Shown: positions 29,801 to 53,200, numbered from the stretch's first letter. The stretch: 64,000 nucleotides of DNA from Protoeuglena noctilucae (GCA_958009085.1 OY253670.1:310001-374000); one strand, 5' to 3'. Notes: a model not told the origin generated them from the sequence alone. A program made the numbers and translations.

Positions 29801-30383
29801 TGGCATGATGGGTGGTGGCATGGGGATGGGGATAGGGAGGGGCCGGGGCATGGGTGTGGCTCCGGCTATGGCGGGGGTGATGGGGGCACCTATGGGGATG
29901 GGAATGGGCATGGGTATGGGAGATGGCGTGGGGGGTGGTTTCACGATTCCTAGAGACCCCCATTCCGTGCGCAAGGCGCTTCACAAGGCCGCGAGTGCGG
30001 GGAACGTGGGGGAGCTGAAGGCGCTGCTGCTGAGCCCCCTCGTCACGCTGGTGAGAGTCATTGATAGGAGTATAGTGAATGCAAGGTGTATGTACTAGCA
30101 TATGTAGCATATTTGATGGCTGTGAGTGGTGAGGGGGCAGTGGGAGCTGAAGGCGCTGCTCACCAGCCCCCCTCCCCTCCCTCACTTTCACCACCCCCTC
30201 ACCCTCACCCCTCCCTCACCATCCCCCCAGAGCGACGTGGGCCCGAGCCTCCTCCACACCGCCGCCAGCTTCGGCAACGTGCAGACCGTGGTGGAGCTGC
30301 TGGGCATGGGCGTGCCAGTCAACTGTGTCATGGGGGCAAGACGCCTTTGGATGTGGCGAGGGCGGCTGGGTATACCACCACTG
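26893..30383 (+). CDS. Ankyrin-repeat protein with a long Tyr/Gly/Gln/Pro- and Met/Gly-rich low-complexity region; runs into the assembly gap
   Basis: MTSYYSR|SPAAAAALLAAIRRNS..., SPIHAAGA, LVKYGANIN, then YGQ-rich exons, then ALHKAASAGNVGELKALL, LLHTAASFGNVQTVVELL and GKTPLDVA. The last motif needs one extra G in the run at 30332-30336. Confidence 0.7.
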
Positions 30384-30583
30384 NNNNNNNNNNNNNNNNN
30401 NNNNNNNNNNNNNNNNNNNNNNNNNNNNNNNNNNNNNNNNNNNNNNNNNNNNNNNNNNNNNNNNNNNNNNNNNNNNNNNNNNNNNNNNNNNNNNNNNNNN
30501 NNNNNNNNNNNNNNNNNNNNNNNNNNNNNNNNNNNNNNNNNNNNNNNNNNNNNNNNNNNNNNNNNNNNNNNNNNNNNNNNNNN
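30384..30583. other. Assembly gap (200 N)
   Basis: Run of N. Confidence 1.
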
Positions 30584-31680: not shown

Positions 31681-31884
31681 GGGTGTGGGGTGGGGGTGGG
31701 GGTGGGAGTGGGTGTGGGAGTGGGTGGGAGTGGGTAGGAGTGGGAGTGGGTGTGGGAGTGGGTGGGAGTGGGTGGGAGTGGGAGTGGGTGTGGGAGTGGG
31801 TGGGAGTGGGTGGGAGTGGGAGTGGGTGTGGGAGTGGGTGGGAGTGGGTAGGAGTGGGAGTGGGTGTGGGAGTGGGTGGGTGTG
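31681..31884. repeat. G-rich simple repeat (GGGAGT/GGGTGT/GGGT)n
   Basis: About 200 bp of degenerate hexamer units directly after the stop/donor-like GTGAG. Confidence 0.9.
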
Positions 31885-32449
31885 GAGGACAGGCGCAGCT
31901 TTGGTGTCATTAAGCGGCGCAGATATCATCATTATACCATGTGCAGCATGTGCGGATTGTTTGTTAATGTAGCTGCGTGGCGTGTAGGCAAGTGCGCAGT
32001 CGGTTGCAAGCTATCACTGTCATCTCTATCGTTTCAAACACGAGCGCAAGCCCAAGGGCACAGCCAGCCGCGCCGACGGGCAACTCGCCACGTGCCTGTC
32101 AGACGCTTTGCCAGTGGCTCTGCCACAAAGAGCAAGCGGGGATGGACACAGGGATCCGTCAGTCAGAGACCACGAGAGGACAAAGTGTAAGAAAGTGCAG
32201 ATCACGATATTTAGAGTTATAGTGCTTGTAAAGGACTAGGAGAGATCACAACCGGGATGGCGAGTGGGGAATGGCTACCCTCGCCAACCCCGCCGTTGCG
32301 TGACGTCAAAAACAAGCCACTGCCACCTCCAACCCTCATTACCACCTCAAACCCCACCACTGCGACCTCCACGCCCACCACTGCCACCCCCACCCATCAC
32401 CCCCACCCCCACCACCCCATCACCACCCTACTCCACCCCACCCCCACCC

Positions 32450-35400
32450 CTACCCCCTCCTCCCCCCCCGCGCATTCTTAGCCGACAGCATCCTCCCCAG
32501 TTCCGCAATCGATCGTTTCTTGGTCTCGACCATTTGAAATGCCGCGAACGCGAACCCGCAAGCGTTGATGGCGGCGTATGCCAGGTAAGTGCCGCCCGCA
32601 CCGAGGGAGGTGAGGAGGAAGGGGAAGGTGAGGCCGACTGGGGGTGGGAGGGAGAGAGAGGGGTGAGGTGAGTGAGATGAGAGTTGAGGTGAGGAGGCAG
32701 GGAGGTGAGCCGCACAAACACCCATCCACACATCCGCCCACACACCCATACCCACACCCACACACACCCTAACAACATCCCCCCTCAGCGACGATGTTAG
32801 CCACCCACACTCACACCCAAACACACACACACACACACACACACCCAATATCTCCCCCTTGTCCCTCACCGGCGATGTTGGCCACCCACACCCACCCACA
32901 CACCCACCCACACCCAAACACACGCACACTCCCAACCCCCCCTCACCGGCGATGTTGGCCACCCAGTGCGCCCCCGTCGCGAACGCCATGCCCTTTCCCC
33001 GCACGTGATCTGGCATGATCTCACTGGCATAGGTGAACGGCACGGGGCCCGCCCCCAATGCAAAGAACGCGCAGTAGAGGAATATGAGAGCGAGGGAGGC
33101 GGCGCTTGCGGTGCGGTTGCCTTGGCCGGCCCATGCGGACGCAGCCACTCCCGACAGGCACACGGCCATGCCTGCGTGGCTGAGCATCATCAGCGTGCGG
33201 CGGCCCAGGGTGTCTAAGAGGAGGGAGGCGGGAATGACGAAGGCGAAGAGGACAACGCTGGGGGGGAGGGAGAGGGTGGGGGTGAGTGGGTGGGGAAGGG
33301 GGTGTGGGGTGTGGGAGTGAGTGGGTGGGTGCGATGTGTGGGATGAGTGGGGGTGAGTGAGTGGGTGAGTTGGAAGGATCGGGCGAGTTGGGTGGGGTGA
33401 GTGAGGGTTGGGTGAGTGTGCGTCTGTGCCCATGCATGTGTGGGTGTGTCCCACCACTACCCCCATCTTCTCTCACCCAACGCCCGCCCCCCAGCTACCC
33501 TCATTTACCACCACCCCTCTCCCATTCTCTCACCCGATGCCCACCGCCCCGCCCAGGGCCATCCCCGGGGTAAACCCCGCGTCCGCCAGAACCTGACCCG
33601 AGTAGATGATGACCGTGTTGATGCCGCTCAGCTACAGCAGGCACACCGTCACCGTCGCCAAATACGTCATCCGGCCATACTGGGACCCAAACAGGTCGCC
33701 CCACGACACAGGACTCTGGCACCGGTCGTTGCCAGAACCGTCGCCAGAGTCCCCGTTGCGCGACGCTCCTTCACCACCCCCCACCTCCCGGTTTCCCTCG
33801 CCGTGTATACTCGGCCCCGGCACCGCCACCCGCACCCTGCCCCGCCTGCTCCTCTCCCCTCGCCCCTCTTCGACGTCGCATGCCGCTCCACGCCTGCTCC
33901 TCCCCTCTTCGACGTCGCATGCCGCCTCAGCTGCGCGAGTCTCCACGCTGTCCCTGCCATCCCCATCCCCCACACTCTCCGCCTTGTTATTTCCATCGCC
34001 ACCCGCACCCGTACCACCACCCGCACCCATACCACCACCCGCACCCGTACCACCACCCGCACCCGTACCACCACCCATGCCACCCATGCCACCCGCACCA
34101 CCACCACCACCCCTCGCCACCCCAGCCGTCTCCACGCCACTGGTAGTCGGCGTCAAGTCGCACTCCGCCCCAACCACGCCCACGTCGCCCTTCGCACCAC
34201 CGCCCCCGCCCCTGCCAACCCCCTTCCCCACCTCACACGTAACACCCGCCTCAGCATCCACCCGACATGCTGCTACCCCCGCACCCTCAGCATCACCCTC
34301 CCGCAATCAGCAAGTGGCCTTGCTTCCCTCTGCCGGCCCTACCGCGGCCCGGCGCTTGGCCCGCAGCACCGCATAGGCAGCAGCGGCGTCCTCGTCGCGG
34401 CCCTTCCACGCCAGCCTGCGGGTTTCAGGCAAGTGCGGGTGCGTTAGAATGCGTGTCGGAGCCAGTCAAACGCGGCACTGCATGGGAGTAACTCAAAACG
34501 TGAAGGTGAAGCGTCACCGCAGACAAGGGGTGCACGACCTGCCATCGCGTTGCTCACTGCAGAGCCCTAGATGGTGCCGCCCATGCCACAAGCACCACAA
34601 TCACCCACAAACACCACCACCATCACTGTCACCACAATCACCACATCACTCAACACACTCCCCCTTGCCCTTGCCCCAGTCACCAGAGAGGGCTCTCGGC
34701 GGCCCAGGCCCACAGCGCGGCCATGGCGAGGCACGGCACGAAAGAGAGGGCGAACATGACGCGCCACCAGCTGGGGTGGAGGGACCTTGCTGATGCGGAC
34801 TGGAGGCCGTAGGGGACGCCGGTGAGGAAGGAAAAGAGGACCCCGGCGGACACTGCGGGGGTTCGAACGGGGGACCGAGTGACGGGGTGTGCACGGGTGG
34901 GTGTGAGGGAGGCGGTGGAGTTGGTGGAGAGTGCTTGTCCCTTCACCAGCACCCACACCTCCCATCACGTACAATCACAACGACACCCACACCCGCACCC
35001 ACACTCACCCGTCAGGTGGTTGAGCGTGCCGAGCGTGCCCCGGATGTCGACAGGCGCGATCTCCGCCAGATACCGTGACACTAGGGTCACGAACACACCC
35101 ACTCCAAGACCGATTAGCACGCGTGCCGATGCCAGCAGAGGCCACCCGGCAGAGGCCGGCATGGCGGTGGAGATGGCGACTCCGATGACCAAAGGCGCGT
35201 TGGCGAGCAGGAGCGTGCGGCGGGGGGACAGGGAGTCCGCCTGGGGTGGTGGAGGGGTGTGAGGGGTCGCGATGGGGAGGTGGTGTGGTGGACGGCGATG
35301 CTTGGGACCCTATATGATGGCACAGCGTGGTCGGGCCGTTAACAGAACAAGGGCAGTGCATTGTTGTCGATTGGATAGCGAGGCCAGAGAGTGTCCTTTA

Positions 35401-35956: not shown

Positions 35957-37316
35957 CTCGGCGCTTCCCGGACGCCCCGCGAGCCCAGGACGGGAAGCAG
36001 ACCCAGCCACGGCTTCCGCACACGTGTGGCCCACCTAAAGCGACGGCATTGACGAGGGCGCGAGGTGCAGCAAATCTGGGAGGCCACGTCAGACGCCACG
36101 CAAGCAGCAGCGATGACACGTCTCTTTTTCCGACACTGGAGTTGCGAAATGTGACACGAACGGGCTCATTTGCTTTCGAATTGAGCGGGCCTCGAAGAAA
36201 TGCAAGAAACGGGGTCGATTGTCGGCAGATGTTGGTTCAGCAAAGCGTTGCTATGTGTCTGTGACAGAGGGGCGAGACTGCTGGCGAGAGCCCAGGTCGA
36301 CAACGGTGGCACCGCAAGCACAAGAGCAGCGTCGCGCCCTCCGTGGGGAATCCTCCCAGTCCTCGCCGCCAATTGCTCTGCCCGCTCGGCGCCAATACCA
36401 TGCGACTCAGCATATGACAGCGATGACCAGAAAGGCATCGGGCAGTCGCAGCGCGACAGCTGCGGCCACAGAGCACGGCACGCGTGAGAAGGTGCAGGGC
36501 CGCAACGTTGGTCCGCGGATCCCGCGGGACGACAGTGCGAGACGCAGTGCGCTATGACTTGGGACTCCAGAGGACGACGGACGCTGCATTTGACGCTTGC
36601 GAGCAGCCGCGCCAGCCGCGCTCAGCCAGGCCTGCCTCGTCGCATTGCGGGGCTCCCGTCCTCGCCGATGCCAGCTACACGTCGCTGGCGCGTCGGGGCA
36701 CGACAGCAGCAAGGATGCGGGCCTGCGGGGCGGCGAATGCTGCCGGGCCCGTGCGATTGGTGCGCCTGCCCGCGCCCGGGGCGGTTCTCCGGGCCACGGC
36801 GCTGCCCAGGGTCGCAATCGGACGGAGTGTGTGTCGGCCGGGTCTGGCGTGGCAGCCGGCGCGGGGTCTCGGCAGGTGCAGGGCCACCCGGATTCTCGAA
36901 GATGCACCGTGTTTGGGGGCGATGCACGCGCGATGCCTCGCGCGAGGAGTGCGATGCGATCGGCTGTGTGTATGTATACTGCACGGGCCGTTGGCCGGGC
37001 CGCGTCGCGGGCGGGGACAGCGGGCGCGGGCAGGGAATGCATCCACACCCTTTGCAGCCGGCGATGCAGCGAAGGGTCGCGCGAGAGGGGCCGGAAGGGC
37101 GACGTGCAGCATGGTGTACATGTCCCGCAGATCTGTGACGCGCCGGGCGGACGGCGGCGACGGCGATACGAGCGGGGAGCGGCGGGGCTTCCCGCGGCCA
37201 TCCCAGCCGCAGGGCAGCGGGGACACGCGGCGATCGGACGGAGCCCGGCGGGGCAGGTGAGGGGGAGGGAGCGGTCATGTTTGTCGGGACACGTCGGGGC
37301 GGGCGGGCCGTGGGAC

Positions 37317-37805
37317 TGTGGGATCGGCCAAGCTGGGCTACCACCCCGGCAAGAGAGTCATGGACACCATGCGAGATGCCGCGGTGGCCAAGATGGGGGA
37401 TTTTACACCTCAAAGACTGGCGAACACGTTGTGGGCGTGGGCTGAGCTGGGGTATGATGACCCCGGTAGCGCAACCATGGACGCGGTGCGTGAGGCCGTG
37501 GTGGCCAAGCTGGGGAACTTTAATGCACAGGATTTGGCCCGGTGTGGGCCTGGGCCACGCTACAGTACCAGCCTGGCCTTCCTGTGCTCCGCGCTGTGGA
37601 GGACGCCGCTGTGCAGCTGTCTCCGGCTTTGGATGCCATGGACTGGTCCCAGCTGGCCTGGGGCCTGGCCAGGCTTGGGCACAGGGGCTCTAGCGTGTGG
37701 CGAGGTGCAGTGGCGGTGCACAGGGATTCCATGGTGCCATATCTCAACGCCAAGCAGCTGGCTGTGGTGGACGAGTGGCTGGGTGATAGAGCTGGCAATG
37801 CCTAA
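37317..37805 (+). pseudogene. Second OPR-like paralog, frameshifted
   Basis: GDFTPQRLANTLWAWAELGY.., then a 4-bp deletion at 37539/37540 (ttggcc-cggtgtgg vs ctggccaacacggtgtgg in copy 1), then WAWATLQYQPGLP...; ends TAA at 37805. Confidence 0.75.
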
Positions 37806-38018
37806 GGCTGCTTGCTTATTGACTCCCGAGCATTTCCGCTGCGATGCTGCTAGCATCGCATGCCATAGGGCCTGCCGTCAGTAGCTGTGAGTGGCGGCTA
37901 GGCGGTAGATTGTCGCCCAAGCCCTGCCTTCAAGCCCAGCAGTTGTGCTTGCATCGCGATGCCTATTCAAAGACAAGCCCTGGTTCCTAAGCTGCAGCCA
38001 CCCTGTCACAACTAACCA

Positions 38019-38218
38019 TCACGTGTGCCCCACCGCTGCCTGCCACTCCTCGCACGTGTACTTCTGCCCGGCCACCGTGAAGCTCGCCCCCCCGTAGCAC
38101 TCCAAGCTCATGCCCCTCAGGTCCTCGCCCGTCCGCCCCGACACCTCGAGCCTGCACGACTTGTACTCGTAGTCGTAGTAGTTGTACTGGTAGCTCGACA
38201 CGGACACCCCCGCTGAGC
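38019..38218 (-). pseudogene. Orphaned 3' fragment (last ~66 codons) of the beta-helix gene
   Basis: SAGVSVSSYQYNYYDYEYKSCRLEVSGRTGEDLRGMSLECYGG...GHT* matches 791-990; homology ends abruptly at 38218. Confidence 0.85.
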
Positions 38219-38620
38219 GCCACTGTGGATGATCTGGCACGTAGGGCAGGCCCATAGGGAGTCAATTACTGCCAGCCGAATAGCCCTGCATCTCCATCTG
38301 TTTGTCCCGATCCTCACGAGTAGCTTTCATCTTCCAATCGCACCTGCGAAGTCCCGAGCTCAGCTCCGTTCCCGCCTGCAGCAGGTTGGGCCAGCAGGTG
38401 AGCCGGCCAAGGCATTCGATGATCAATTTATGCATCTAGATTTCGATGATCGCCACATACACGCTGTCGGTCCACCTGCAGGGCGAGGGCGGCATCGCAC
38501 GCTGGCGGCAGCGTACGGAACCCAGGCCCGCGCTTAGAACGCGCCGCCCGGTCGCTCACGCGCCTTCGCCGATCCGAGCGTGTCCGCTCTCCTCCGCGGG
38601 ATCGCCGCGCGAGGGCCGCG

Positions 38621-41600
38621 ATGGTGGAGTTGGTCGTAAACGTCGAGGTTTTCCTTCGGCGTCTCAAAACCCTCTATGACCGCTGGAAGGCGAGCGCGCG
38701 GGGCTCGGATCGGTCCACCGGGTCTCTTTAGAACGCTTCGTCCGATTAGAGGCGACGGGACGCGCCCACGTCCCGCCAGGCGCCCCGCGAGCCCAGCGCG
38801 GGGCGCCACCCCTGCCTCGCCCGCCGCGCCCCGGAGCGTGACCCCCGCCCCAACTAACCGGCCCGTCCCTTTTGTCGGTTCACGAATTATTTGATGGCAA
38901 GGTCCGATGTGGCGTGCGACGACGCGCTGCCCGCGCCCGGCGCTCTGCACGCAGGCCGAGCGTGCGGGCCCCTGGCAGGGCGCGGACGTCCTGGCCGTCC
39001 CCCACGGCACGCCGAGCAACGACATCAGCTACAAGAAGTCTGCATCCCTGCACATGTGGCTATTTGGCTACGAGGTGGGCGCCACGCGCGCTGCGTCTGC
39101 GCCTCCGCGCCCGCTGGCCCGCCCCGCCCCGCGCGGGCGCCCTCGCCCCCGTCCGTCCTGCTCAATCCTTCGTTTGGTTCATATATCACTCGAAATCAAT
39201 GCCAGGGTCGTCTCCGGCCCGCCCCGCGCGCCGCGAGAGCGCACTGCAGGACCGGACCCCGCACTGCGCGCCTCTCCGCAGATCCCCGACACGGTGATGG
39301 TCTTCACGCCTTCATCGATCGAAGTGGTCGCGTCCAAGAAGAAGGTGGCGTTCCTGGAGCCGCTCGTGGAGCCGCTGCAGAGCCGCATGGGCATCAAGCT
39401 CGCGCTCTTCGTCAAGGTGAGGTGTTTGAGGGGCTCTGAGTGTGGAAAGGGCTAGTCTGCGATGAAGAGTGAGGAGTGAGATGTGACAGGGTGACATGCA
39501 CGTCACGACAGTAGCGCACTGCTACCAGGGCTGCGCATGCAATGCAGATACGTCCCAGCCACACCGTCGCATTGCATCGCACCACCCCGCTCCCTCGCTC
39601 CACCCACCCACCACGCTCCCCCCGCTCCTTCCCCCTCTCAGGACAAGTCGAGCGATGGCAAGGAGGAAGTCGCTAAGATCCTCCCCTCCCTCCGTGCCGC
39701 ATCAGCTGTCGGCGTATTTGCGAAGGACAAACACGACGGTCCCCTGGTGGCGACGTTCTTTGAAGCGTTGGGGGATTCCAAGACCGCGGACGTGTCCGCT
39801 GCGGCCGCGGAGGTCATGGCGGTGAAGGACGAGGCGGAGCAGGCGAGGGGTGGGGGTGTGTGGGGGGGGTGTGTTGAGGGGCTCAAGACACAGTGATAAT
39901 CAGTGGATTTTACAGAGTTACGAGTCGATATCACCATGCAATGCATCCATTACTCTTCCGTCATCACCCATCCTCCCACCACTCCCTCTCCCTCCCCCAG
40001 AAGCTGGTGCGCAAGTCCGCGTTTCTGGCGTCTTCCGTGGTGGCCAACTTCGTGCAGCCGCGGGTGGAGGAGGTGGCGGCGTCGGGGAAGCGCGTGCGGC
40101 ACAAGGCGCTGGGGCAGGAGATTGAGGTGAGGGGAGGAGAGGGGACGAGGAGAGGGGAAGCGCGTGCGGCATCACGCAAAGTGGAGTGGCTCAGTAGACA
40201 AGCCGACAGCGCTCTTACTGCCACTCGCACCCTCACTGCCACCACCCCCACTGCCACCCCCACTGCCACACTCATCACCACCCCCACTGCCACCCCCACT
40301 GCCACCCCCACTGCCACCCAATACCCTCACCCCCACCCAACACCCCCAGGAGGCCTGCCAGAACCCAGCAGCCAAGGCGAAGATCAAGCTGAAGGCCGAC
40401 GCGGTGGACGTGGCCTATCCCCCCGTGGTGCAGTCCGGCGGCACGTTCGACTTGCGCATGATCGTGCCGTGTGACGACCGTTTCCTGCACCCCTGGTGCG
40501 TGACCGTATCGGTGGGGACGAGGTACCAGTCATACTGCGCCAACTGCGCGAGGACGTTCTTCGTCAACGCTCCTGCCAAGGCGCAGGTGAGGGATTGATG
40601 GGGTGGGGGTTGGGGTATGGGTGGTGGTGAGGGTAGAGGAGGGGTGATTGGTAGTGGCAAGGGGCGGTGGGTTCCCTTCTATCTATGCTCATCCTCACAG
40701 ACACACTTTTCTATGCCGCCCAATTTCTCATACTCCATTCCCTCTCATCTCCCCGCTTCCCACACAGACCCAGTACCAGGCCTTCCTCTCCACCCTCACT
40801 CCTGCTCCTCACAGACCCACTCTCTCATGCAAATGTACTCTCGCACTCTCTCTCATCTCTTCTCTCCCTCACCAGAGGCCCAGTACCAGGCCCTCCTCTC
40901 CGCCCTCACCGCCCTGTGCACGTCCATCCCCACAGACCCCATCTCATGCTACTACCCCATTCCACCTCTTCTAACCCTATTGTTAACACCACCACCACCC
41001 CTTTCCACACAGACCCAGTACCAGGCGCTCCTCTCCGCCCTCACCGCCCTGTGCGAGGCCCTGCGCCCGGGCGCATTGCTCAAAGACGTTTACGCTGCCG
41101 CCATCGACGCACTCAAGGCGTCCCCGCACCCGGAGCTGGCCGAGTTGCTGCCCAAGAACCTCGGATCGCTGACGGGGATCGAACTGAGGGAGGCGTCGCA
41201 CGTGATCGGGGCGGGGTGGTGAGGGGATGTGGGGTGGTGGGGTGGGGTGGGGGTTAGGGAGGGATTGTGTGGATTGGGCCGGGGTGGTGAGATGTGGGGG
41301 GGTGGACGGGTTGGGAAATGAGGATTGGGATGAGCGGAATGAGTGGGAGTTCAGTTGCGCAGTCGGCGAGATGCACCGTCACGCCTCCTCGCTTTTACTT
41401 CACTTCCCTTGCACCCCACCTCACCCCCATTCCCACTCCCTTATCACTTCGCTATCACTTACCCGTTACCACTCACCCCCCTCCCCCCTCTCTCCCAATC
41501 TCTAAGCAGGTACCCGCATGCAGCCCCACTGCTCCCCACTCCCTCATCAACCCCAACTACTAACACCACTCCCCCCACTCCTCCACTCTCTCATCACCGC

Positions 41601-44600
41601 TACCTCACTGCCCCCCACTCCCCCACTGCCTTATCACTTTGCTACCACTCCCCTCACTCCTCCCCCACTCCCCCACTCCCTCCCCATCACCCCCAACCAC
41701 TTACACCACTCCCACCACTCCTTTCCCCCTCTTCCCTTCTCCCAGCGATGCCCGCGTGGAGCCCAACTGCGCGTACGTGGTCAACCTCATGGCCTCTCCT
41801 TTGGTGAACGAAGAGGCGCCCGAGGGACCCGAGCGCACCTACGCACTGCAAGTGTCAGACACGGGTGAGTGAATGGGGGAGTAGTGATTGGGGTAGATGA
41901 GAGAGGATGGCGACGGCATAGCTGCGCTCTGCAAGTGTCAGACACGGGTGAGGGAGATGAGGAGAGTGACTAGGGGATATGGGTGCGATGAGTGTGGGTA
42001 GATGAGTGACTGGGAGATGGGTGGGGGTTGCAGTGTTGCACCTATGTCCTGCAAGTGTCAGACACGGGTGAGTGGGAGATGAGTGACTGGGGGAGATGAG
42101 CGATGGAGGGAGATGAGTGTGGGTGGCAATGGCTGGATGGGGCGATAGGGGTCGTGACCATGGCTGCAAATACTACCCTCCCTCACCCACACCCTCATAG
42201 CAACCCACACCACATGCCAACCCACCCCCCTATTCAAACAAACCCCCATTACCCCCCACCCCCCACCCCCAGTGTTGACGAAGGATGGCGCGGCTGCCGA
42301 GTTGCTGACCAGCTTCAGCAAGCGCGACTGGAAGGACCTCACGTATTTGATGGACCGAGAAGAGATGGCCAGGGACCAGGCGAGGATATGGGGGATGAAT
42401 GGGGATACCGGTTACTATGTATAATGGGGGATAGAATTATGCTGTATCAGATGCACATGTTACTGTGTAGTGCTTGTTATGTAGTCAAAGATCGGGAGGA
42501 GATGGCCAGGGACCAGGCGAGGAGAAGGGTTGAAAGGGAAATTTGGTTGTTGCTATCATAATGTATTGGGAAATGATATTGGAAGTGATGTTTGCGATCG
42601 AACGCGCAGGGTGCGTTCGTACTAACATGTTCTGACTCTATCGACTGTTCTCTCTGCTTTGCCCAATATATTTGTCCAACAAGTATATTAACGAATAATC
42701 CCTATCGCATTCTTATACCATGCTAACAACACCCCCCTTCGCAGGGCGTGGACTCCGGGGACGAGGAGGGGGAGCGTGCGTTTGCGATTGGTCGGGACGC
42801 CCTTCGTGCGGCTCGCAAGGACGACGTGCAGCAGCGGCAGAGGGAGCTGGCGGAGGAAAAGACGAAAGACACGATTGACAGGCTCAGAGCTGCGGGGGAG
42901 AAGATGGGGAGGGGAAAGGCGGGTGAGGGGTTAGGGGGGTGGATGTGGGGTGGTGAGGGAGTGGTGGGGTGACAATGAGAGACTGAAACGTCGTTATCTT
43001 CCGGGTTGCCTCTCATAAATACGATTCTGTTATCACCCACTCCCAATTCATACTCTCTCAGGCAAGGCCGTGCGCACCACCAAGAGCATCGTCAGTTACC
43101 GCGATATGGCCGAGATGCCCAAGAGCCAGGCCATGGTCATCCAGGCGAGTTGAATGGGAAGGGAGGGTTAGTTGTGTCTAGCATAGCTTTCAGTTGCATT
43201 CCGTCTTCATAATTAGCGTCCTACTTGCCTCTTTTATCATTATAATCACCCACTATCTATTCACCAATCCGTATACTATCTTCAACCATTCCCCCATCTT
43301 ACCACCCAACAGGTCGACCACCGCCGCGAGTCCCTCCTCCTCCCCATCTACGGCGTGCTGGTCCCCTTCCACATCGCGACGGTCAAGTCGATCACGTATA
43401 GCCAGGAGGGCGAGCTGCATTCAATCCGCGTCATCTTCAACACGCCCGGGTCATTCGCGGCCGAGGGGTTCCAGCCCGCTGCCGACTTCCCCCACGCCAT
43501 CTACGTCAAGGAGCTCAGCTACAGGTGAGGGATGTTTTGTATAACTGTTATAATTATAGTGTATATGTCACTATATGTGGGCACCATAATGCGCCATCTA
43601 CGTCAAGGAGCTGAGCTGCAGGCGAGTGGGGGGATGGTTTATTATTGATATCGGTACTGATAACAATAATAACATCTGCCTCTTTGGAACCCAGTCACCT
43701 CGATATCATCCAAACTTCCAACTCCCCGTCGTCATTTCCAAACACCCCCAGGAGCAAGGACGCGGGCCACGCCTCGCGCGTGGTGCAGGAGGCCAAGGCA
43801 TTGCAGAAGAACGTGAGGAGCCGGGACAAGGAGCGGGCGGAACGTGCTACGCTGGTGTCGCAGGAGAAGATGGTCACGATGCGCGTGCCGAGGGCCAAGC
43901 TCAGCGACGTGTGGGCGCGGCCGGCGCTGGGGGGCGGGAGGGGGAGGAAGGCCCCGGGGGTGCTCGAGGTGCACCAGGTGACTGTGGTGGTGTTATATGT
44001 CATATTTATTATTGATATGTATGAGGAAGTATGAACGATGCGTGTGGGTGTCTCGGTACTGTATGGAAGGCGCCGGGGGTGCTTTAGCGAGGTGCACCAG
44101 GCGAGTCTGTTATATTATATTATATTATATTATATTATATCACCACCCCTCATTCCTTGTCAATCGCAGAACGGCTTCCGTTACTCGAGCCCGCGCACGC
44201 AAGAGGTGGTGGACGTGATGTTCAGCAACGTGAAGCACGCCTTCTTCCAGCCGGCGCAGAACGAGCACATCGCGCTGGTGCACTTGCATCTCTTCGACCC
44301 CATCATGGTCAACAAGAAGAAGACCAACGACGTGCAGTTCTTCACTGAGGTGGGTATGGTTATCATGGTATCAATAGTTACGGGTAGTTACTAGTATTGG
44401 TTAGATATGGTGGTGGCAGTCAACAAGAAGAAGACCAACGACGTGCGCAGTAGTCAACACCGACACCAAGCCGTGTCCTAATCATTTGCTTACTTCGAAC
44501 ATAACTCTTTCACTCCCCCCTTCCCCTATTCCCAGGTGGTGGACGCGGTGCAGACGCTGGACGGCGCTCGTAGTAACGCGTACGACCCCGATGAGATTGA

Positions 44601-46593
44601 GGACGAGCAGAGGGAGAGGGAGAGGAAGAACAGGATCAACAAGGACTTCGAGAGGTTCTGCAAACAGGTGAGGGGAATACCGAAGACGCGCTAAAACGTT
44701 TTGTACTGCACCCATGCCTCCTCCCATCCCCGCAGCTCACCAGAACGAGCTACGATAATTTAATGGTAATAATAATTACAATAATCATCTACTATTCATC
44801 GTCCACCCCCCTTCCCACCCATCGCAGCTCCAGGACGTGTGGTCGCGCGAGTTCCCCAAGCTGGACCTGGAGTGGCAGATGCCCTATCGCAAGCTGATGT
44901 TCGAGGGGGTGCCATTCAAAGAAAACGTCAACTGCCTGCCCACCATGAAGTGCCTGGTGGAGCTCACATCCATGCCATTCCTGGTGGTGGACCTCGACGA
45001 GGCGGAGATCGTGTCCCTCGAGGCGAGTTTGGTTTGTTGTTGGTATAATTGATTTATCAGTATCTGTTACTACTGCTATTATTACTATCACTGCCAGTGC
45101 GACCTCGACGAGGCCGAGATTGTGTCCCTAGGCGAGTATCGTGGTTATTTGTTATTGTTATTACTGTTATTATCATGCTATTACTATTACTATTACTATT
45201 ACTATTACTATTACTATTACTATTACTATTACTTTTACTATTACTGTTACTATCCTTATTACTTTTACTCTTACTACTCTCAACCACCATTCCCCCCCGC
45301 AGCGCGTGGGCATTTCATCGCTTCGCAACTTTGACATTGTGGTGGTATTTAAGGACTTCACCCGACCCGTGCAGCACATCCACTCGGTGCCCGCCAAGAA
45401 GCTCGAGGTCGTCAAGGCGAGTTCTTTTTGTAATTAAATAACATAGACACATCGAATGCGAACGTGATGATAATAGATATTAAAAAATGATTATCATAAG
45501 TACAATGATGTGATAATTGTGATATTGTAATAATTATTATAAGTATAATAACCCACTCATCATCTCCCAACCCACCCCCAGCAATGGCTGACCTCCACGG
45601 GCATCCCGTTCTTCGAGAACAAGCACAACATGCGATGGGACATGATATTGAAGGAGATCACCAAGGACCCGGCCGCGTTCGAGGAAGTGGGGGGGTGGGC
45701 GGGGTTCCTGGACGCGCAGGGCGGGAGCGATGATGAGGTGAGAACAAGATGGGTGGGGTGGGGTGATGGGTGGGGTGATGATAGAGATGGGGTGTGGTGA
45801 GGGTAGCAGTGGGGGTGGCAGTGGAGTTCCGGGACGTGCAGGGCGGGAGCGAGGATGAGGTGAGGGGTGGGGTGGGTGGTGATGAGTGGGGTTGATGAGG
45901 GGTGTGTTCGCGTGGAAATGGCGAACGGGTAGCACGGACTGTGTCGCCAGTACTAGTATGCATGTATGATATTAATTAGTCAACATATCATCGTATGATC
46001 TACGCTCCCAGGACGACGGCGAGCCCTCGGATGACGACTTCCAGCCGTCAGGGAGCAGCGAGGAGGAGGAGAGCGACGACGAGTCGAGTGACTACATCAC
46101 CAGCGAGGGGGAGGTGAGTGATGAGAGTGGGATGGAATGAAGGGGGTTGTAGGTGTTGGATATGCCCCACCCTCGCTGCCATTCGCACACTCATCCCCAC
46201 TGCCACCCCCACCCCCACTGCCACCCCCACCGCCACCCCCACTGCCACCCCCACTGTCACCCTCAACATCACCCCCACTGCCACCCTCCCTCACCCCCAC
46301 TCACCCCACCCACCCTCACCCTCACCCCACTCCAGGACTCTGGCTCTGAGGAGCTTGGGAGTGACGAGGAGAGTGGCAAGGACTGGGATGAGCTTGAGAA
46401 GGAGGCAGCGGATGCGGACGCTGAGGCGGGCAGCGATGACGATGAGGAGGAGAGGCGGTTGAAGAGGAAGAGGGAAGCGATGTCTAAGAAAGGGGGTGGT
46501 GGGAGTGGGAAGGGGAGTGGTGGGGGTAAGAGTGGGGGTAAGGGGGGACCAGCGAAGGGGAGTGGGGGGCCTGTAAAGAAAGCTAAGCGATGA
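38621..46593 (+). CDS. SPT16: FACT complex subunit SPT16; 20 exons
   Basis: FLRRLKTLYDRWK, SYKKSASLHMWLFGYE|IPDT, YPPVVQSGGTFDL, GTRYQSYCANCARTF, LLLPIYGVLVPFHIATVK, GVLEVHQ|NGFRY, VKHAFFQP, YDPDEIEDEQRER and acidic tail GKDWDELEKEA. All 19 introns join in frame. Confidence 0.96.
45150..45282. repeat. AT-rich (TAT/TAC)n microsatellite in an SPT16 intron
   Basis: ttactattactattactatt... tract, far below local GC content. Confidence 0.9.
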
Positions 46594-46929
46594 GGGGGTT
46601 AGTGGGTGAGGGAGGTGGTGGGGTGAGGAGATGTGGAATTAAGCGGAAGTACGGGCGAAGGGGTGGATGTGGGTGGGGTGCTGGAGGTGGCGGTGGTGGT
46701 GGTGGTGGCGAGAGTGGGTGGCAAGGCGGTGTGCGCGTTTGCGCTGTGGAAAGTTGGGCAGGCGGAAGAAAGCTCGCGCGTTGCAGTTCGCTTGTGTGCC
46801 TCGATTGCGCCTTTAAAGCGGCGAAGTGCAAAACGCCCATGCAAAGCGCGAATGCCAAAGTGCGAACGCACTCGTGCGAGTGCGCTCTGCCAGCCAGCTG
46901 CCCGCCCCTGGGTGCCGCCCAGGTTTCCT

Positions 46930-46934: not shown

Positions 46935-47231
46935 ATGGTCTTATCGACAACAGTTGGCTTCTTTGATATTCAACTACTACGGATGAGACACTACAGACAC
47001 CCACACTGACACATCCTGGCACTGTGCTTGTAAGTATTTACATCCTATTCCACTATGCCCTTGCTCACACCAAACTGCCCACTCGTTTTGCCCCCTGCTC
47101 TCTCACTACACCATCACCCACTCCCACCCCCATCACCCACTCCCACTCCTACTGCCACCCTCATCACCCCACTCCCACCCCCACTCCACCCTCACCACCC
47201 CACCCAACCCCACCACCCCACACCCAAACCC

Positions 47232-50200
47232 TCACCCGTCGTCGTGTAATGCCACAATGAGCGACGGTGCCAGCATCCGGTACACCTCCCCCGACAAAGC
47301 CAGCGCCCACCCCCACGCCACCCCCGCACTGGGCCCCCTCGCCTGCACCACCTCCACGAAGCGTTTGAGGAAATCCAAGCCAGACTGACTCAGTAAACAG
47401 ACGGACGAGTCGACGTCGATGGCAGGCGATGCACTGGCATCGGCATTGGTAACGCTCGCACCACCACCCATGCCACCACTGCCACCCGCACTGCCACCTG
47501 CACCCGCACCCGCACCTGCACCCGCACCCGCAACCGCACCCGCACCCGCACCCGCACCCATACCACCACCCGTCTCTCCCCATCCCCCGAGCACCGTCGT
47601 CACAGCAAACAGCCCCGGCGCCGCCCGGCACAGCCACTGCAGCACGTCGCGCTGCGCTTGTTTCTTACGCAAACGCCTCTCCTTTCGCTCTGCGCTGTTT
47701 TCCATCCCATCAATGTCCTCGTCTGTCCCAAACAGGGAGGGGAATAGGGGCAGGCGGGAGGGGTCCACGAGGTCCAATTGGTCGGCCCAGTAGCGAGCTG
47801 CGGGGGGTGGGAGTTGGGGTGGGGATGTGAGTTTGGGGTGAGGGGGTGAGAATGGGGTGAGAGTTGGGGTAAGAGTGAGCGGGTAAAGGTGGGTTGCAGA
47901 GAGAGAGAGTGGGTGAGCTTGCGCAAGAGTGGGTAAGTGTGCGCATGCCATCTACCATCTACCATTTCCCACAATGCGCATCAGCAACATAGCAATATCG
48001 CGTTTCGTGTTGTGCTGTGCTGCGCCACATCTCTCGCCTTCCAGGTCGACGGTGCTGGTGGGGAGGGAGGAGAGGGGCAGGGAGAGGAACTGGGAGCGGG
48101 GGTCACTGGCGTTGGCGAGCTGCGGGAAGGGAGAAGGGTGTTGTTAGTATTGTTATTTGCTTGCTTGCATCGCGCTTGCATGGAAAGCGTCACAGACAGC
48201 ATCGCAGGCCATGTCTCCCACCACTCAACACTCACACCACCATTCCACTCACATACCATCCCAATCAACCGCCACCCACCCCATCTCCAACTCTCACCCG
48301 GCACAGCGTAATCGGGTACGCCATGTCACCCACCACTCAACATCCACACCCACATTACATCCAAATCAACCCCACCCACCACTTCACAACTCTCATCCAC
48401 CACTACATCAATCCCTCACCCGGCACAGCGTGATGGGGTACGCCATATCACCCCCCACATTCGCCTCGTGCACCGCCCTCATCGCCTCCGCCTCCTCCCC
48501 ATCGCCCATCCCCGCCCCGCACACCCACAGCCGCGTGTGCCGGAGCAGTTCCGGGTCCGACAGACGCACGCTCAGCTCCTGGCGCACGAAGCCACCCCCC
48601 TTAGGCCCCCACGCGCCCCACACCGCCGTCGACCCGACCGTCCCCACCGCCACCACCCGCACCCATGGCGCGCCCTCGGCCAGCATCGCGGCGAGTTCCA
48701 GCACCGCCTCCGCAGCCACGGGACGCACCAGGCCCCCGTTCAGATACACCACGATCACCCGGCGGTCGCTGGGCCCAGCCGCCGCCAGGGCGTTTACCAG
48801 CAGCGACGCCGCCAGACTGGCAAAGTCCTCGCCCCTCGCATCCGCCGCCGCCTCCATCGCAGCGAGCATCGCCGCTTTAGAAAGGCCCGGGGGTGGGTCG
48901 ACGGCCAGCTGACACGCGAGCGTCCATAGCAGCGACGCGTTGCGGGCCCACAGCGGACTGCGCAGGCCCCGGCACTCGCCGCTTGCCTGGTCGGGGAGAG
49001 CCGCGGCGAGGAGCAAACCGCACCGGCGGAGCTCTTGCGCCACCTCTGCCGCCATGCACACGGCCGGGAGCTCTGACAGACCGTCTGCTGTGCGGCACAG
49101 GCGGGACAGGCAGGGGGTGTCGGGGGCAGGGCCGGGGTGGACGCGAACGAACAGCAGCGTCTGCGGGCGCGGGACCTCGCCGACGGGCGCGGGCTCCCGG
49201 CCGCCGTCGCCGGGGGCAGCGGCACGGCGGCCGCGCCTGCGCTTGGCGCCACCCCGCAGCCGCAACGGGGGTGGGCCGTCGACCGGGGGGCCGCCGGGTT
49301 GCGGGGAGGGGTGCGGGGAGGGCGCGGGGACGCCCTGCGACGCGGCAGCGGACGGGAGGTACGGGGACAGGTGGCCCGCGGTTGCGTGGGTGGGTGGGTG
49401 CGGCCCCGCGACCCCCGCACCCCCCGCCATCCTCTGCGCCATCGCCAGCCACTCCGCCTCCGCAGCACTCCTCCCCGCGTTCGCCACCCCCGCTCCCTGC
49501 CCCTGCCTCGCCGCCACCTCTGCCCCCACCGCCTCCGCCACCCACCGCTCGCACTCTTGGGCCGCACGCATCCCCGCCTCCATTTCGAGCATCCGGGCGC
49601 GCGCCAGCTGCGCCTCTAAGGAGAGAGGACCGGACGTACCGGTATGCCCGATCATGCCCCCGATATGACCCATCATCGCGGTCAGCTCCCGCAGTGCCCA
49701 TGGGTCCCGCACCAGCGCCGCCAAAATCTCAGGGTGGGGCAAACCCTGGCCGGGAGCCGGGGCAATACCCTGGGCGGGGTCGGGGTCGGCGGGGAAGGCG
49801 CCCGCAGGCGCGTAGGGTGGCGCGCGGGAGTGGGCGAGCGCGAGGTGGGGCGGGTCGCTTGCGGGTGGCTGCCCGGCCCCTTCGGTCGCACCCCAGCCTT
49901 CGCCGGCGTCCCAGCGCCGTCCCACATCGGTCGGGGCGTCCGCTGCGCCCCACAGCGCCGCGCGCGCCGCCTCTGCCGCCGCCGCCGCCCTCTCCGCACC
50001 GACCATCGCGTCGGCAGTCACCGCCCCGAGCCCCCCCGTCCCCATCTGCGCCTCGTGCATCTGTTGCATCTGTTGCAGTTGCATCTGCTGCCACTGCATC
50101 TGTTGCAACTGCATCTGTTGCATCTGCATTTGCTGTATCTGCTGCAGCTGCGCCTGCGCTTGCATCTGGGCTGCCACGTCCTCTCCGTAACCCCACCCCG

Positions 50201-53200
50201 GCGCGCCAGGCAACCCCGCATGCACTGCCCCGTGTGCCGCACCCTCATCATACCACGGCGCCCCATCGCCACCCCCCATGCCACCCCCCACGCCACCCAT
50301 ACCACCCATCGCACCCCCCATCGCACCCCCCATCACGCCACCCCCCTGCTCCCCCCACGCGGGCAGCGGGGGCGCGCGTAGGGCCGGCAGCGTCAACAGC
50401 CGGTGCAGATGCTCTGCCGCCGGCCGCAGGGACTCAAACACCGTGCCAAAGAACCGACCCATTGCACTTCGCGTGCGCAACCACTCCCGCTCCGCAGCAG
50501 CTGCCCACGGGCCCTGAGATGCACTTGCAATACCTTCCGCAGCCCCCGATCCCGAATCCGCATCCACCGGCGCCCCCACTGGCGCGGACGGCACTGTTTG
50601 AAATGTCGGCCGCCCACCCCCTCCGCCACCGCCCATCCCCGCATCCCCACCCTCGCCCTTCGGCCCACCCCCGCCGCCACCCCCGCTGCCATCCGCACCC
50701 AATCCCGACCGCGCTCTCTGCCCCCGCCCGCCGTCCTCATTCCCATCACCGCCCTCCTCCCCACCGCGCGCCTTGCGCTTGCGACCCACTCCCTCGCCCG
50801 CGCCATGCCCCACGCTGGTACTAACAACCCCATCTCGCACGGTTGCCGTCCCCTCTGCCCCCATCGCCCCCGCTGCACCCTCCCCACCGCTCACCTCCCG
50901 ACCCACGCCCACCGCACCACCCTCCCCACCCTTCCCCTCCCCACCCTTTTCGTCTCCACCCTCTCCGCTCCCCACCGCCGCCCCGTCGCTGCTGACGATC
51001 GGAATGACCAGGGACCCGCCTTTCCCGCCCCTCTTCGCGCCGCAGAGCGCGACCAGCAAGTGGCGATAGGACACGTCGCCGTCCTGGGCCTGCGTTTGGT
51101 TGAAGTGAAGTGAGTTACTACTGTTGTTCCACAGGGAGTATGTGCTGTGTCAGACAATGGCAGAGTGGCCAAGCTCAACCCAGTACCCCTCTCTTTGCAC
51201 CACCGCTCATCACCCACCCTCCCCCACTCACCTCACCCCCACCCTCACCCACCACCTCCTCCCATCACCCACAATCGCTCACCTCCCACCACCCCCCACC
51301 ACTCACCTCACCGCCCCCCTCCCCCACCACCTCCGCCCTCGCGTACTCCGCCACCTCTTTCATATCACTCCACCGCACCACGGGAGAGACCCCCTGGCCC
51401 CATCGGAAGCACTGGGCCCAGGTAGTGCCTGGGAGGCCGTCCCTGGTCATCTGGGGACGCGAGGGAGGTGAAAGGGAGATGAAGAAGGCAATACAGTCAT
51501 GTCCAAATGTCGATTAGTAAGTATAATCACTCTCCCTCTCACCCTCACCCTCTCTGCTATCGTCACCCTTGCCTAGCACTCTCCCACTCACTCTCACTCC
51601 CATATCACCCACCACTGTCCCCTTCCATCTCACCTGGAACAGCGACGCGTACGTGTCGGCAGGCAGACCCGCCTCCTCGCACCAGGCGACGAACCACCGC
51701 ACATCCGCACGCGCCTGGAGTGCCACCACGCCATCCGCGCCCTGGGGAGGGGAAACGAGGTGATGAGAGTCGGGTTTCTAACCACAGCATCTAGTCGATC
51801 GAAAACCAGTGGAACCAAACGACGCATTCGGCACGCAGGGTTAGCGCGGGTGCACGGTTCGAATTGCGGGGAGGTGATCAACAAAGCAGGCAAGTGATTT
51901 TGAATCGCAGCCAATTGATTCAACTCATACAGATCACAGTCCCTCACCTGTCCCTGCCCCTGCCCCAGCAGCGTGAGCATGTGATTTGAATCACACCCCT
52001 CTCCCACCTGTCCCTGCCCCGGCCCCAGCAATGTGAGGAAGGCGTCGGCGTGGGCCGCGGGCTGCCACGCGTAGTCATCCCCAAAGGTCAGCGACGACCA
52101 CAGGCGGTGGATGAGAGGGGGCATGGTGCCCGGGTCACGCTGCGGGGGGTGGGGTATTGCAGTGGTGAGGAGTGGAAAGAGTGGGGCGCACACAACCCCT
52201 GCAACAGCCACCCCATCCCATCCCAACCCAACCTGTCTCATCACCATAATATCATGACCCGCACTCTTAGGTGTTTCACCTTGAGATGCGCGACGCGGAG
52301 GGTCTCTACGGTCGCAGGGATTGCCCCGGGAGCCATCGCTCCCTGCACCGCCGCTGCAGCAACACCGCCATCCGCCCCCCGCACCTCCCCAGTACCCACG
52401 CCCGCCACCATTGCACCCACACCACCCTGCCCGTCCTCTCCCACTTTCCTCTCCACCCCGCCCCTTCCAGACCCCTCCACCACCCCGCTTCCCTCCCCCG
52501 CACCCACCCTCACCCCCCCCATCGTCACCGCAGCCGCCGCCGTTAAACTCTCCATCGCCCCGCCCGCCCCCACCGCCGCCCCGACATCTAACAATTCCCT
52601 AACATCCCCCTTCTCCAACAAAGCACGTTCCCCGTCCACCCCCACCTCACGCACGCCGATACCACCCCGCCCCACCCCGCCCCCCGCCCGCTCCCCCCTC
52701 CCCAGCACACCCGCACCCGGCCCTTCCCTTGCACCCGGCGGCACCTCCTGCTCATCCGCAGCGACATGCGGGCCAGCGGTGCCTTTGACATGAGGCGGCT
52801 TGCGGCCCTGGTGACCCCCCGTGTGGCGCACCGCCCCGTGCAACCCCCCCGCCACATGCTTGGCTGGGGGCGTGTGCCGCGGCGCCGCTTCCGTTGCGAC
52901 AGCGACCGGTGCGGGCCCAGCACTACTCGGGCCGGGGCCGGGGCGGGCAGCAGCAGTGTCGCTCGCTGGCACGGCCACCCCCGCCAGCATCTGCGACCCT
53001 CCTGCACCCGCACGCACCCCAGCCGGCCCCTGCGCCCCGCTAACAGCAGCCTGCGCCCCGCCCGCCGCATTTCCCCGTGCCGCCGCACCCGCACCACCCC
53101 CCCGCTCGGCCGTTTGGCCTGCCACCGCGCCACCAGACCCCGGCGCACTCCCAGCCCCTGCCTGCCCCTCAACACCTCCCGGCAATGACGCAGCGGCAGC

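Follow-up and report, generated by a model that had tools for sequence, protein, structure and literature searches.

Recurrent degenerate copies of exon ends within introns of SPT16 and other genes in a genomic segment of Protoeuglena noctilucae

The SPT16 gene and the echoes in its introns

A stretch of 64,000 nucleotides from Protoeuglena noctilucae (GCA_958009085.1, OY253670.1:310001-374000; hereafter the window, with positions counted from its first letter) carries the gene of the FACT subunit SPT16, whose introns repeatedly contain what we call echoes, i.e., copies of the neighbouring exon end that lie inside the intron and often include the splice site. The gene model (Table 1) was rebuilt from frame-checked GT/GC-AG junctions, and the gene is identified as SPT16 because single exons match the Pfam families Peptidase_M24, SPT16, PH_SPT16 and Rttp106-like. 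Six of the 19 introns are of the GC-AG type, and the donors read GTGAGG, GTGAGT, GCGAGG and GCGAGT (consensus GYGAGK). Joints in RNA contigs from three metatranscriptome runs (X9, X10 and X12) back introns 10-17 and 19, intron 13 (43977/44170) being bridged by contig pieces, and among the joints listed none belongs to introns 1-9. Exons are GC-rich all along the gene; introns 1-8, 18 and 19 have a G-rich head and a C-rich tail, and introns 9-17 (42380-45581) are AT-rich and hold AT-rich microsatellites, the G+C content of the window going down to 0.49-0.55.

Local alignment served to detect echoes: a query made of 60 nt of exon end and 8 nt of intron was compared with the intron next to it and, as a control, with the remaining 18. 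Scores of 36-79 were obtained for nine of the 19 introns, against control maxima of 18-30 for the same queries (Table 1), the highest control score for any query being 34. A preliminary description of this DNA had reported echoes in nine SPT16 introns and had noticed none in the first four: all nine of its pairs were recovered by the repeat search, in places agreeing within a few bases, and introns 1-4 scored 12-19, not above their own controls. Intron 7 is a marginal tenth case. Overall, ten introns hold 12 echo events, donor-side in nine introns (5, 7, 8, 9, 12, 13, 14, 16 and 18, with two events in intron 8) and acceptor-side in one (intron 6, two events), and the offset from the real copy to the echo is 68-137 bp. 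The two echoes of intron 6 are also alike in the intron stretch that follows them.

When exon flanks of 150 nt were used, with a threshold of 27 (the 99th percentile of 1224 control scores), the 19 introns yielded eight direct copies of the upstream exon, one direct copy of the downstream exon and no inverted copy on either exon side (0/19). A detector of high-complexity direct repeats with a spacing of 50-300 bp found 11 of them in the SPT16 gene of 8 kb (13.8 per 10 kb). Outside this gene it found 10 in the window (1.78 per 10 kb), four of which are coding protein repeats, and in 49 SPT16 metagenome loci from other organisms (264.6 kb) it found six (0.23 per 10 kb), a density about 60 times below that of the gene studied here. 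Tandem Repeats Finder (TRF) by itself misses the SPT16 echoes, because each unit is alike only in part. We conclude that the echoes are real, that they recur, and that SPT16 is not the only gene to have them.

Table 1. Positions of the SPT16 gene, its echoes and related features in the window; scores are those of the exon-end alignment, own intron/control.
Feature	Position	Strand	Description	Score
SPT16 (FACT subunit) gene	38621-46596	+	20 exons, 19 introns, 1051 codons; frame-checked exon chain	
SPT16 RNA joints, among those listed	42922/43062, 43144/43313, 43524/43752, 44349/44536, 44667/44828, 45022/45303, 45416/45582, 46113/46336			
Intron 5 echo	40084-40101, copy 40154-40171	+	exon-5 interior, 18/18 exact, offset 70, without donor	36/25
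Intron 6 acceptor echoes	real acceptor and exon-7 head 41008-41054; copies 40873-40919 (94%), 40763-40809	+	units 135, 110	79/27
Intron 7 weak donor echo	41204-41247, copy 41272-41315	+	77% over 44 nt, offset 68; intron part z 3.6	30/26
Intron 8 donor echoes	real 41839-41881; copies 41922-41964, 42042-42084	+	exon tail and GTGAG three times; units 83, 120	59/19
Intron 9 donor echo	42353-42392, copy 42490-42529	+	88%, offset 137, GC donor kept	53/21
Intron 12 donor echo	43495-43529, copy 43592-43626	+	91%, offset 97, echo donor GT to GC	55/21
Intron 13 donor echo	43946-43985, copy 44065-44110	+	4-nt insertion, offset 119-123	52/21
Intron 14 echo	44308-44335, copy 44419-44446	+	exon-14 interior, 28/28 exact, offset 111, without donor	56/18
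Intron 16 donor echo	44987-45028, copy 45097-45137	+	GC donor, 2-nt deletion, offset 110-111; intron part z 7.7	58/18
Intron 18 donor echo	45686-45742, copy 45808-45864	+	84%, offset 122; intron part z 5.5	72/30
Sugar-transporter-like gene (name from reading the translation)	real donor copy 32940-32965; echoes 32863-32888 (26/26), 32779-32807	-		
48.3-kb gene	exon tail and donor 48415-48458; echoes 48293-48336, ~48208-48247	-	three-copy unit of 112-122 bp	
30.0-kb gene (ankyrin-like by eye)	exon tail 30010-30039, copy 30142-30171	+	offset 132, donor (30051) not included	
Predicted intron 23120-23332	exon tail and donor 23104-23127, copy 23154-23177	+	offset 50; TRF period-26 array too	
Predicted intron 51090-51306	51224-51338	-	G-rich exon tail and donor echoed 75 bp downstream, 36/40	
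60-bp direct duplication	51945-52037	-	two donor-like sites, GTGGGA then GTGAGG; in frame, stop-free	
Carrier-like gene, acceptor echo	60218-60248, copy 60318-60348	-	polypyrimidine tract, CAG and 9 exon nt; offset 100; predicted intron	
Intron-internal tandem array	59669-59984	-	period 114, 2.3-2.7 copies (91%/71% matches), C-rich intron tail, without exon sequence	

Anatomy and decay of the echoes

The SPT16 echoes are 18-57 nt long and end 65-215 nt upstream of the acceptors, in the middle of the intron. Those that bear a donor include the first 5-8 intron bases, and therefore formed after the intron existed. All eight of them keep G[T/C]GAG, GT having become GC in two, so that the earlier proposal that echoes lengthen introns and leave decoy donors (GYGAG) holds; in intron 13 the echo donor GCGAGT is nearer to the consensus than the real donor GTGACT. 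In five of the eight, the sequence that follows the donor also resembles the authentic intron head (z 3.6-9.1 with respect to shuffles), the value of 9.1 belonging to the comparison of the first with the second echo of intron 8. An edge of the intron 5 patch shares a GGGGA microhomology with the intron head, as seen by eye.

Identity in the exon-like part of the echoes ranges from 87 to 100%, and its 26 mismatches are distributed as 4, 7 and 15 over codon positions 1, 2 and 3 (120, 119 and 120 sites), which fits a neutral echo beside an exon drifting only at silent sites. Codon-position pattern and identity range together indicate that the echo events are real and of different, non-zero ages. 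Changes affect 3 of 40 positions in the donor core and about 10% of the exon-like part (our own count), and the use of any echo donor leads to a stop codon within 1-20 codons. The idea of mutually exclusive exon tails, which needs a cryptic donor where the real copy begins and an acceptor ahead of the echo, was considered by eye for introns 12 and 14 and rejected on account of a frame shift or the lack of an AG.

Support from independent DNA and RNA

Marine metagenome contigs from another study (X5) are identical to the window, with neither differences nor gaps, at 38184-40263, 40330-41206, 41261-44098 and 44152-45144. These pieces carry the echoes of introns 5, 6, 7, 8, 9, 12, 14 and 16 in full and cover that of intron 13 (44065-44110) only to 44098; the intron 18 echo is in no X5 piece among those listed. 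The contigs, assembled from short reads, break at the low-complexity arrays 32734-32939, 41207-41260 and 44099-44151, the first of which is also where the echoes of a gene at 32.9 kb (see below) fall.

In the RNA contigs of the three runs, introns 12, 13, 14 and 16 of SPT16 and the intron 48120-48419 of another gene are spliced from the authentic donor to the acceptor. The echo of intron 12 is spliced out by the joint 43524/43752, found in three runs, those of introns 14 and 16 by the joints 44349/44536 and 45022/45303, and for intron 13 the contig pieces run over 43749-43974 and then 44167-44347; at a loose RNA end (46010) the tail of exon 18 is the authentic one. No joint using an echo donor occurs among the joints listed. 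In these contigs and introns, the echoes leave the dominant RNA together with the intron, as harmless decoys. At 37540-38218, upstream of the gene, the DNA run agrees with the window and one X9 RNA contig departs from it by 56 differences and 9 gaps; this contig probably derives from a paralogue or a related strain.

Echoes in other genes of the window

About four to six further genes, located on both strands of the window, have the same pattern, which brings the totals to 18 donor-side, three acceptor-side and two to four intron-internal events. In the sugar-transporter-like gene at 32.9 kb the donor 32947/32946 is echoed twice, with units of about 77 and 81 bp (TRF period 77, 3 copies); the exon edge 32947 is where RNA contigs stop, and the echo at 32779-32807 has lost its GT, which reads CT. 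The intron 48120-48419 of the 48.3-kb gene is defined by the RNA joint 48119/48420, and its tandem unit starts in the exon. The intron of the 30.0-kb gene (30051-30230) is a prediction, and a CCCCCTC microhomology was seen by eye at the patch edge. The echo at 51306 is a weaker case because of its low complexity. At 51945-52037 either donor could give a valid protein, the two products lying 20 residues apart, so that this duplication is a possible alternative 5' splice site.

A crude intron predictor, which recovered 16 of the 19 SPT16 introns and missed four RNA-supported introns elsewhere, puts the number of further introns in the window at about 36, with echoes in about six (a rough count on predicted models).

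Coding tandem repeats of 115-117 bp occur in two genes, at 51-338 and 37343-37522, with units of 38-39 amino acids and a motif like LANTVWAWAKLG; they look like helical-repeat RNA-binding proteins, which we presume them to encode, and the open reading frame 37261-37881 had no Pfam match. A G-rich minisatellite at 31694-31885 (38-bp units, 5.1 copies, 96% identity) lies near a gap of 200 N (30384-30583).

Intron tails, structure and the closest relative

C-rich arrays of a 12-mer (unit approximately CCACTGCCACCC) occupy the 3' parts of several introns (40221-40321, 46185-46310, 47106-47211 and 32317-32413). Metagenome DNA depth over them is several hundred to about 1300, as compared to about 13 nearby, contigs break there, and different introns have been joined by the assembly; the array is therefore a high-copy intron-tail repeat. 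In the window and the metagenome contigs, these arrays are the only sequence seen to be both common to introns and high-copy. No Rfam family reached its gathering score within 29000-53000, and 26 introns folded in comparison with dinucleotide shuffles had nothing special in structure (z -3.9 to +2.6), a result that gives no support to the idea of a hairpin pairing the G-rich head with the C-rich tail and holding the echo in its loop.

The closest SPT16 relative found is on a metagenome contig (L001, GC 0.71, 60-63% protein identity), which has a single intron across residues 205-1005, against 15 in the window gene. The intron of the relative is near residue 743, where the window gene has none. 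The difference in number indicates that many of the SPT16 introns are lineage-specific. A protein search with an SPT16 exon returned a single hit, and an Atlas look-up of a neighbouring 913-aa open reading frame yielded scores below 0.85 only. Figures published for Emiliania huxleyi (65% GC, 56-65% GC donors, 535 introns in 68 loci; PMC4028052) are similar to those of the window, unlike the 0.45 introns per gene of Pelagomonas (PMC9481584).

Origin of the echoes

We regard it as fairly probable that the echoes are relics of recurrent short-range duplication or template switching in the same orientation, combined with a selective filter. The duplicated stretches, 50-137 bp in unit size and comprising complete tandem units as well as shorter patches from template switching, would have taken in the splice junction; when exon tail, donor and intron head were duplicated together, the authentic donor would come first and the second copy after it, the exon would be left intact, and the extra copy would leave with the intron. 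Duplications wholly within exons would be removed by selection, and those of acceptors would mostly be lost too, probably as an upstream spare acceptor would get used, so that the survivors would mainly be donor echoes. The copies would then decay through substitutions, indels and partial deletion, some of them being re-duplicated into three-copy arrays. We infer the molecular cause, which may be replication slippage, flap re-annealing or the fill-in of staggered breaks, as well as the selective filter.

Three-copy head-to-tail arrays are present in intron 8 of SPT16 and in the 32.9-kb and 48.3-kb genes, and the process acts away from junctions as well, as seen in the period-114 array and in the duplications inside intron 7 (offsets 140 and 190). 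If units of 68-137 bp were placed uniformly, given introns of about 150-200 bp, 35% of tolerated events would fall over the donor, 35% over the acceptor and 30% inside the intron; as 70% of tolerated events would then lie over a junction, frequent junction copies are to be expected from any active duplication of such size. Selection can explain the donor excess, on the reasoning that a spare downstream donor may stay silent, as experiments on the minisatellite in intron 7 of human F7 showed (PMC1557585), and an upstream acceptor would probably be used. The preliminary description had itself proposed recurrent local tandem duplication, of narrow unit size and with copies that usually include the splice site. 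The first part is borne out by the direct orientation, the multi-copy arrays and the similar intron heads in five of eight echoes, and fails for the patches of introns 5 and 14 and of the 30.0-kb gene. Inclusion of the splice site applies to the eight SPT16 donor echoes and the acceptor of intron 6, the patches of introns 5 and 14 being exceptions, and unit spacing proved to have limits, 50-137 bp with a median of about 104, without being narrow, about 8 of the 18 donor-side units being at 110-125 bp. Three features go beyond that description, namely the strong bias towards donors, the shortness of the exon part and the occurrence of echoes in other genes.

Several observations weigh against this explanation. 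The bare patches of 18-30 nt from the exon interior (introns 5 and 14 and the 30.0-kb gene) are 100% or 87% identical and have dissimilar flanks, and the first echo of intron 8 and those of introns 9 and 12 show no significant similarity in the intron part (z 0.7-1.9), so some cases are left unaccounted for by plain tandem duplication. Once the unit is subtracted, introns 13 and 14 are left with 73 and 75 nt, whereas echo-free introns all have at least 139 nt. In every one of the 15 first-generation events the exon part measures 15-52 nt, for which uniform placement gives a P of about 3e-4, and none of the 18 units is longer than 137 bp (P about 3e-9 if all sizes from 20 to 400 bp are taken as equally frequent, an arbitrary prior). 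Uniform placement also leaves unexplained the excess of donor-side events, 10 vs. 2 in SPT16 (binomial p 0.04) and 18 vs. 3 in the window, and SPT16 is richer in echoes (10/19 introns) than the other predicted introns (about 6/36). Finally, the RNA evidence consists of assembled contigs, which drop rare isoforms, and low-level use of echo donors is possible. The short exon part and the size bound, both unexplained by uniform placement, make a defined duplication mechanism likely.

Such a mechanism could be anchored at the donor itself, the foremost of the alternatives but one that we hold only tentatively. Breaks in the intron head, or stalls past the donor, would cause the last 15-50 nt of the exon and the donor to be copied again, with a G-rich or GT-rich intron head and priming at microhomologies, and the junction would be the cause of the duplication rather than a tolerated bystander. 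The narrow range of the exon part, the 18 to 3 ratio of donor to acceptor sides and the absence of units above 137 bp would follow from it, and the echoes that are patches only are exact and sharp-edged (introns 5 and 14), with the microhomologies described above at the patch edges of intron 5 and the 30.0-kb gene. However, five of eight echoes also contain the duplicated intron head, arrays free of any junction exist, selection against acceptor and exon duplications can give the same donor bias, and the AT-rich intron heads of introns 12-16 carry echoes too. Repair by polymerase theta leaves templated copies of nearby sequence, both direct and inverted, with microhomology at the edges, and the inverted inserts that it is known to give have no counterpart in the 19 introns. 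It is a rather unlikely prospect that this lineage has junction-coupled duplication, with breaks or stalls downstream of 5' splice sites linked to transcription, R-loops or replication through skewed intron heads. If it had, introns would grow, perhaps to a workable length, by repeated donor-anchored duplication, and the genome would contain very many natural pairs of competing identical donors.

Very little probability attaches to the view that selection keeps the echoes as spare U1-binding sites, alternative donors for unproductive splicing or aids to intron definition. It would account for the consensus retained in all eight donor-bearing SPT16 echoes, for the two changes from GT to GC, a donor in use in six of the 19 introns, for the improved donor in the intron 13 echo and for the early stops that follow from all echo donors, as regulated unproductive splicing needs. 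Yet the divergence of the donor core (3/40) is not below that of the exon-like part, one echo of the 32.9-kb gene has no GT, three echoes have no donor at all, none of the listed joints uses an echo donor, and the excess of mismatches at third codon positions fits neutral decay.

The proposal that the echoes are long target-site duplications or parts of inserted intron-creating mobile elements (introners) is hardly credible. It could draw on the many lineage-specific introns and on the high copy number of the C-rich intron tails, and GC or GT donors are typical of Micromonas introners too (PMC3879977, PMC11282704). Indeed the window shares with the genomes of Micromonas and other algae that carry introners a marine, GC-rich and alga-like character, lineage-specific introns in number, frequent GC donors and repeated intron sequence. 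Introners, however, are described as dispersed copies of one element with target duplications of 3-8 nt at the intron ends (PMC3879977, PMC11282704), whereas the echoes are local copies, 18-57 nt long, of each intron's own neighbouring exon, sit mid-intron well away from the acceptor, and post-date the intron whose first bases they hold. Moreover, the spacers between real site and echo are unlike between introns (by eye, without alignment), the donor is GYGAGK and not the GYGCGT or GTGAGAC given for Micromonas IE-A (PMC3879977), and the folds of the 26 introns have no special feature.

An artefact of assembly or sequencing (stutter or collapsed haplotypes) is a negligible explanation, as the preliminary description had already argued: low-complexity arrays nearby do break short-read contigs, but the independent X5 contigs reproduce the echoes of eight introns and the covered part of a ninth without a difference, the copies differ from one another by substitutions and indels, and the mismatches track codon position. 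Two candidate origins of the introns themselves were also rejected, namely intron birth by duplication of AGGT, since the echoes end far before the acceptor instead of at it and intron length does not equal the unit, and break repair with short direct repeats around the whole intron as reviewed in PMC3443670, since the second copy is internal and not at the 3' end of the intron.

Comparison with known systems

The closest known case is the 37-bp minisatellite in intron 7 of human F7, which spans the boundary of exon 7 and intervening sequence 7 (IVS7), and in which the pseudo donors downstream of the authentic one are reported to stay silent, the most upstream being used (Borensztajn et al., 2006; PMC1557585). 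As described there, F7 shares with the window direct repeats whose first unit lies across the exon-intron boundary (here in ten SPT16 introns and in the 32.9-, 48.3- and 23.1-kb introns) and pseudo 5' splice sites in agreement with the authentic one, as they are in the eight donor-bearing SPT16 echoes, one echo of the 32.9-kb gene having lost its GT. F7 is, on the other hand, described as a single locus with a regular array of identical units, while the window has units of 50-137 bp, mostly in two or three decayed copies and with no single length even within an array (83 and 120; 110 and 135), isolated patches (introns 5 and 14 and the 30.0-kb gene), and echoes in 10 of the 19 introns of one gene as well as in several neighbouring genes.

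In yeast rad27/FEN1 mutants of flap processing, and in plant repair of paired nicks, direct duplications of tens to about 100 bp arise that are bounded by short repeats. Those of the window belong to the same size class, with unit edges that have decayed beyond reading; the spectra from rad27/FEN1 or paired nicks are mutant or induced, and they are not known to be linked to splice junctions.

Intron gain by tandem genomic duplication was reportedly described by Hellsten and colleagues in 2011. In the model reviewed in PMC3443670, an exon segment bearing AGGT is duplicated in tandem; as in the window, a short duplication in a gene body doubles the splice signals, and splicing removes the additional copy. 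In that account the intron equals the duplicated unit and the copy of the exon tail ends at the new acceptor, whereas the echoes contain the first intron bases and lie 65-215 nt upstream of the acceptor, extending introns that were already there. A literature search, in which supplements were not opened, returned no account of frequent exon-end echoes in protist introns.

Significance

The pattern is a frequent, donor-biased and size-bounded form of a phenomenon so far known from single loci. The echo donors are decoys that set a trap for gene prediction, as when the crude predictor took the echo donor of intron 18 over the real one. If the pattern were genome-wide, a third or more of the introns would have, 50-140 nt downstream of their 5' splice site, a spare and mostly intact version of that site, and an unusually active, size-bounded duplication process would be shaping the length of introns, most of them young in this lineage. 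The genome would then also offer many natural versions of the duplicated-donor experiment, so far made on single constructs such as that of human F7, and such natural duplicated donors could be used to test how the spliceosome chooses between identical donors in an organism with short introns that also uses GC donors.

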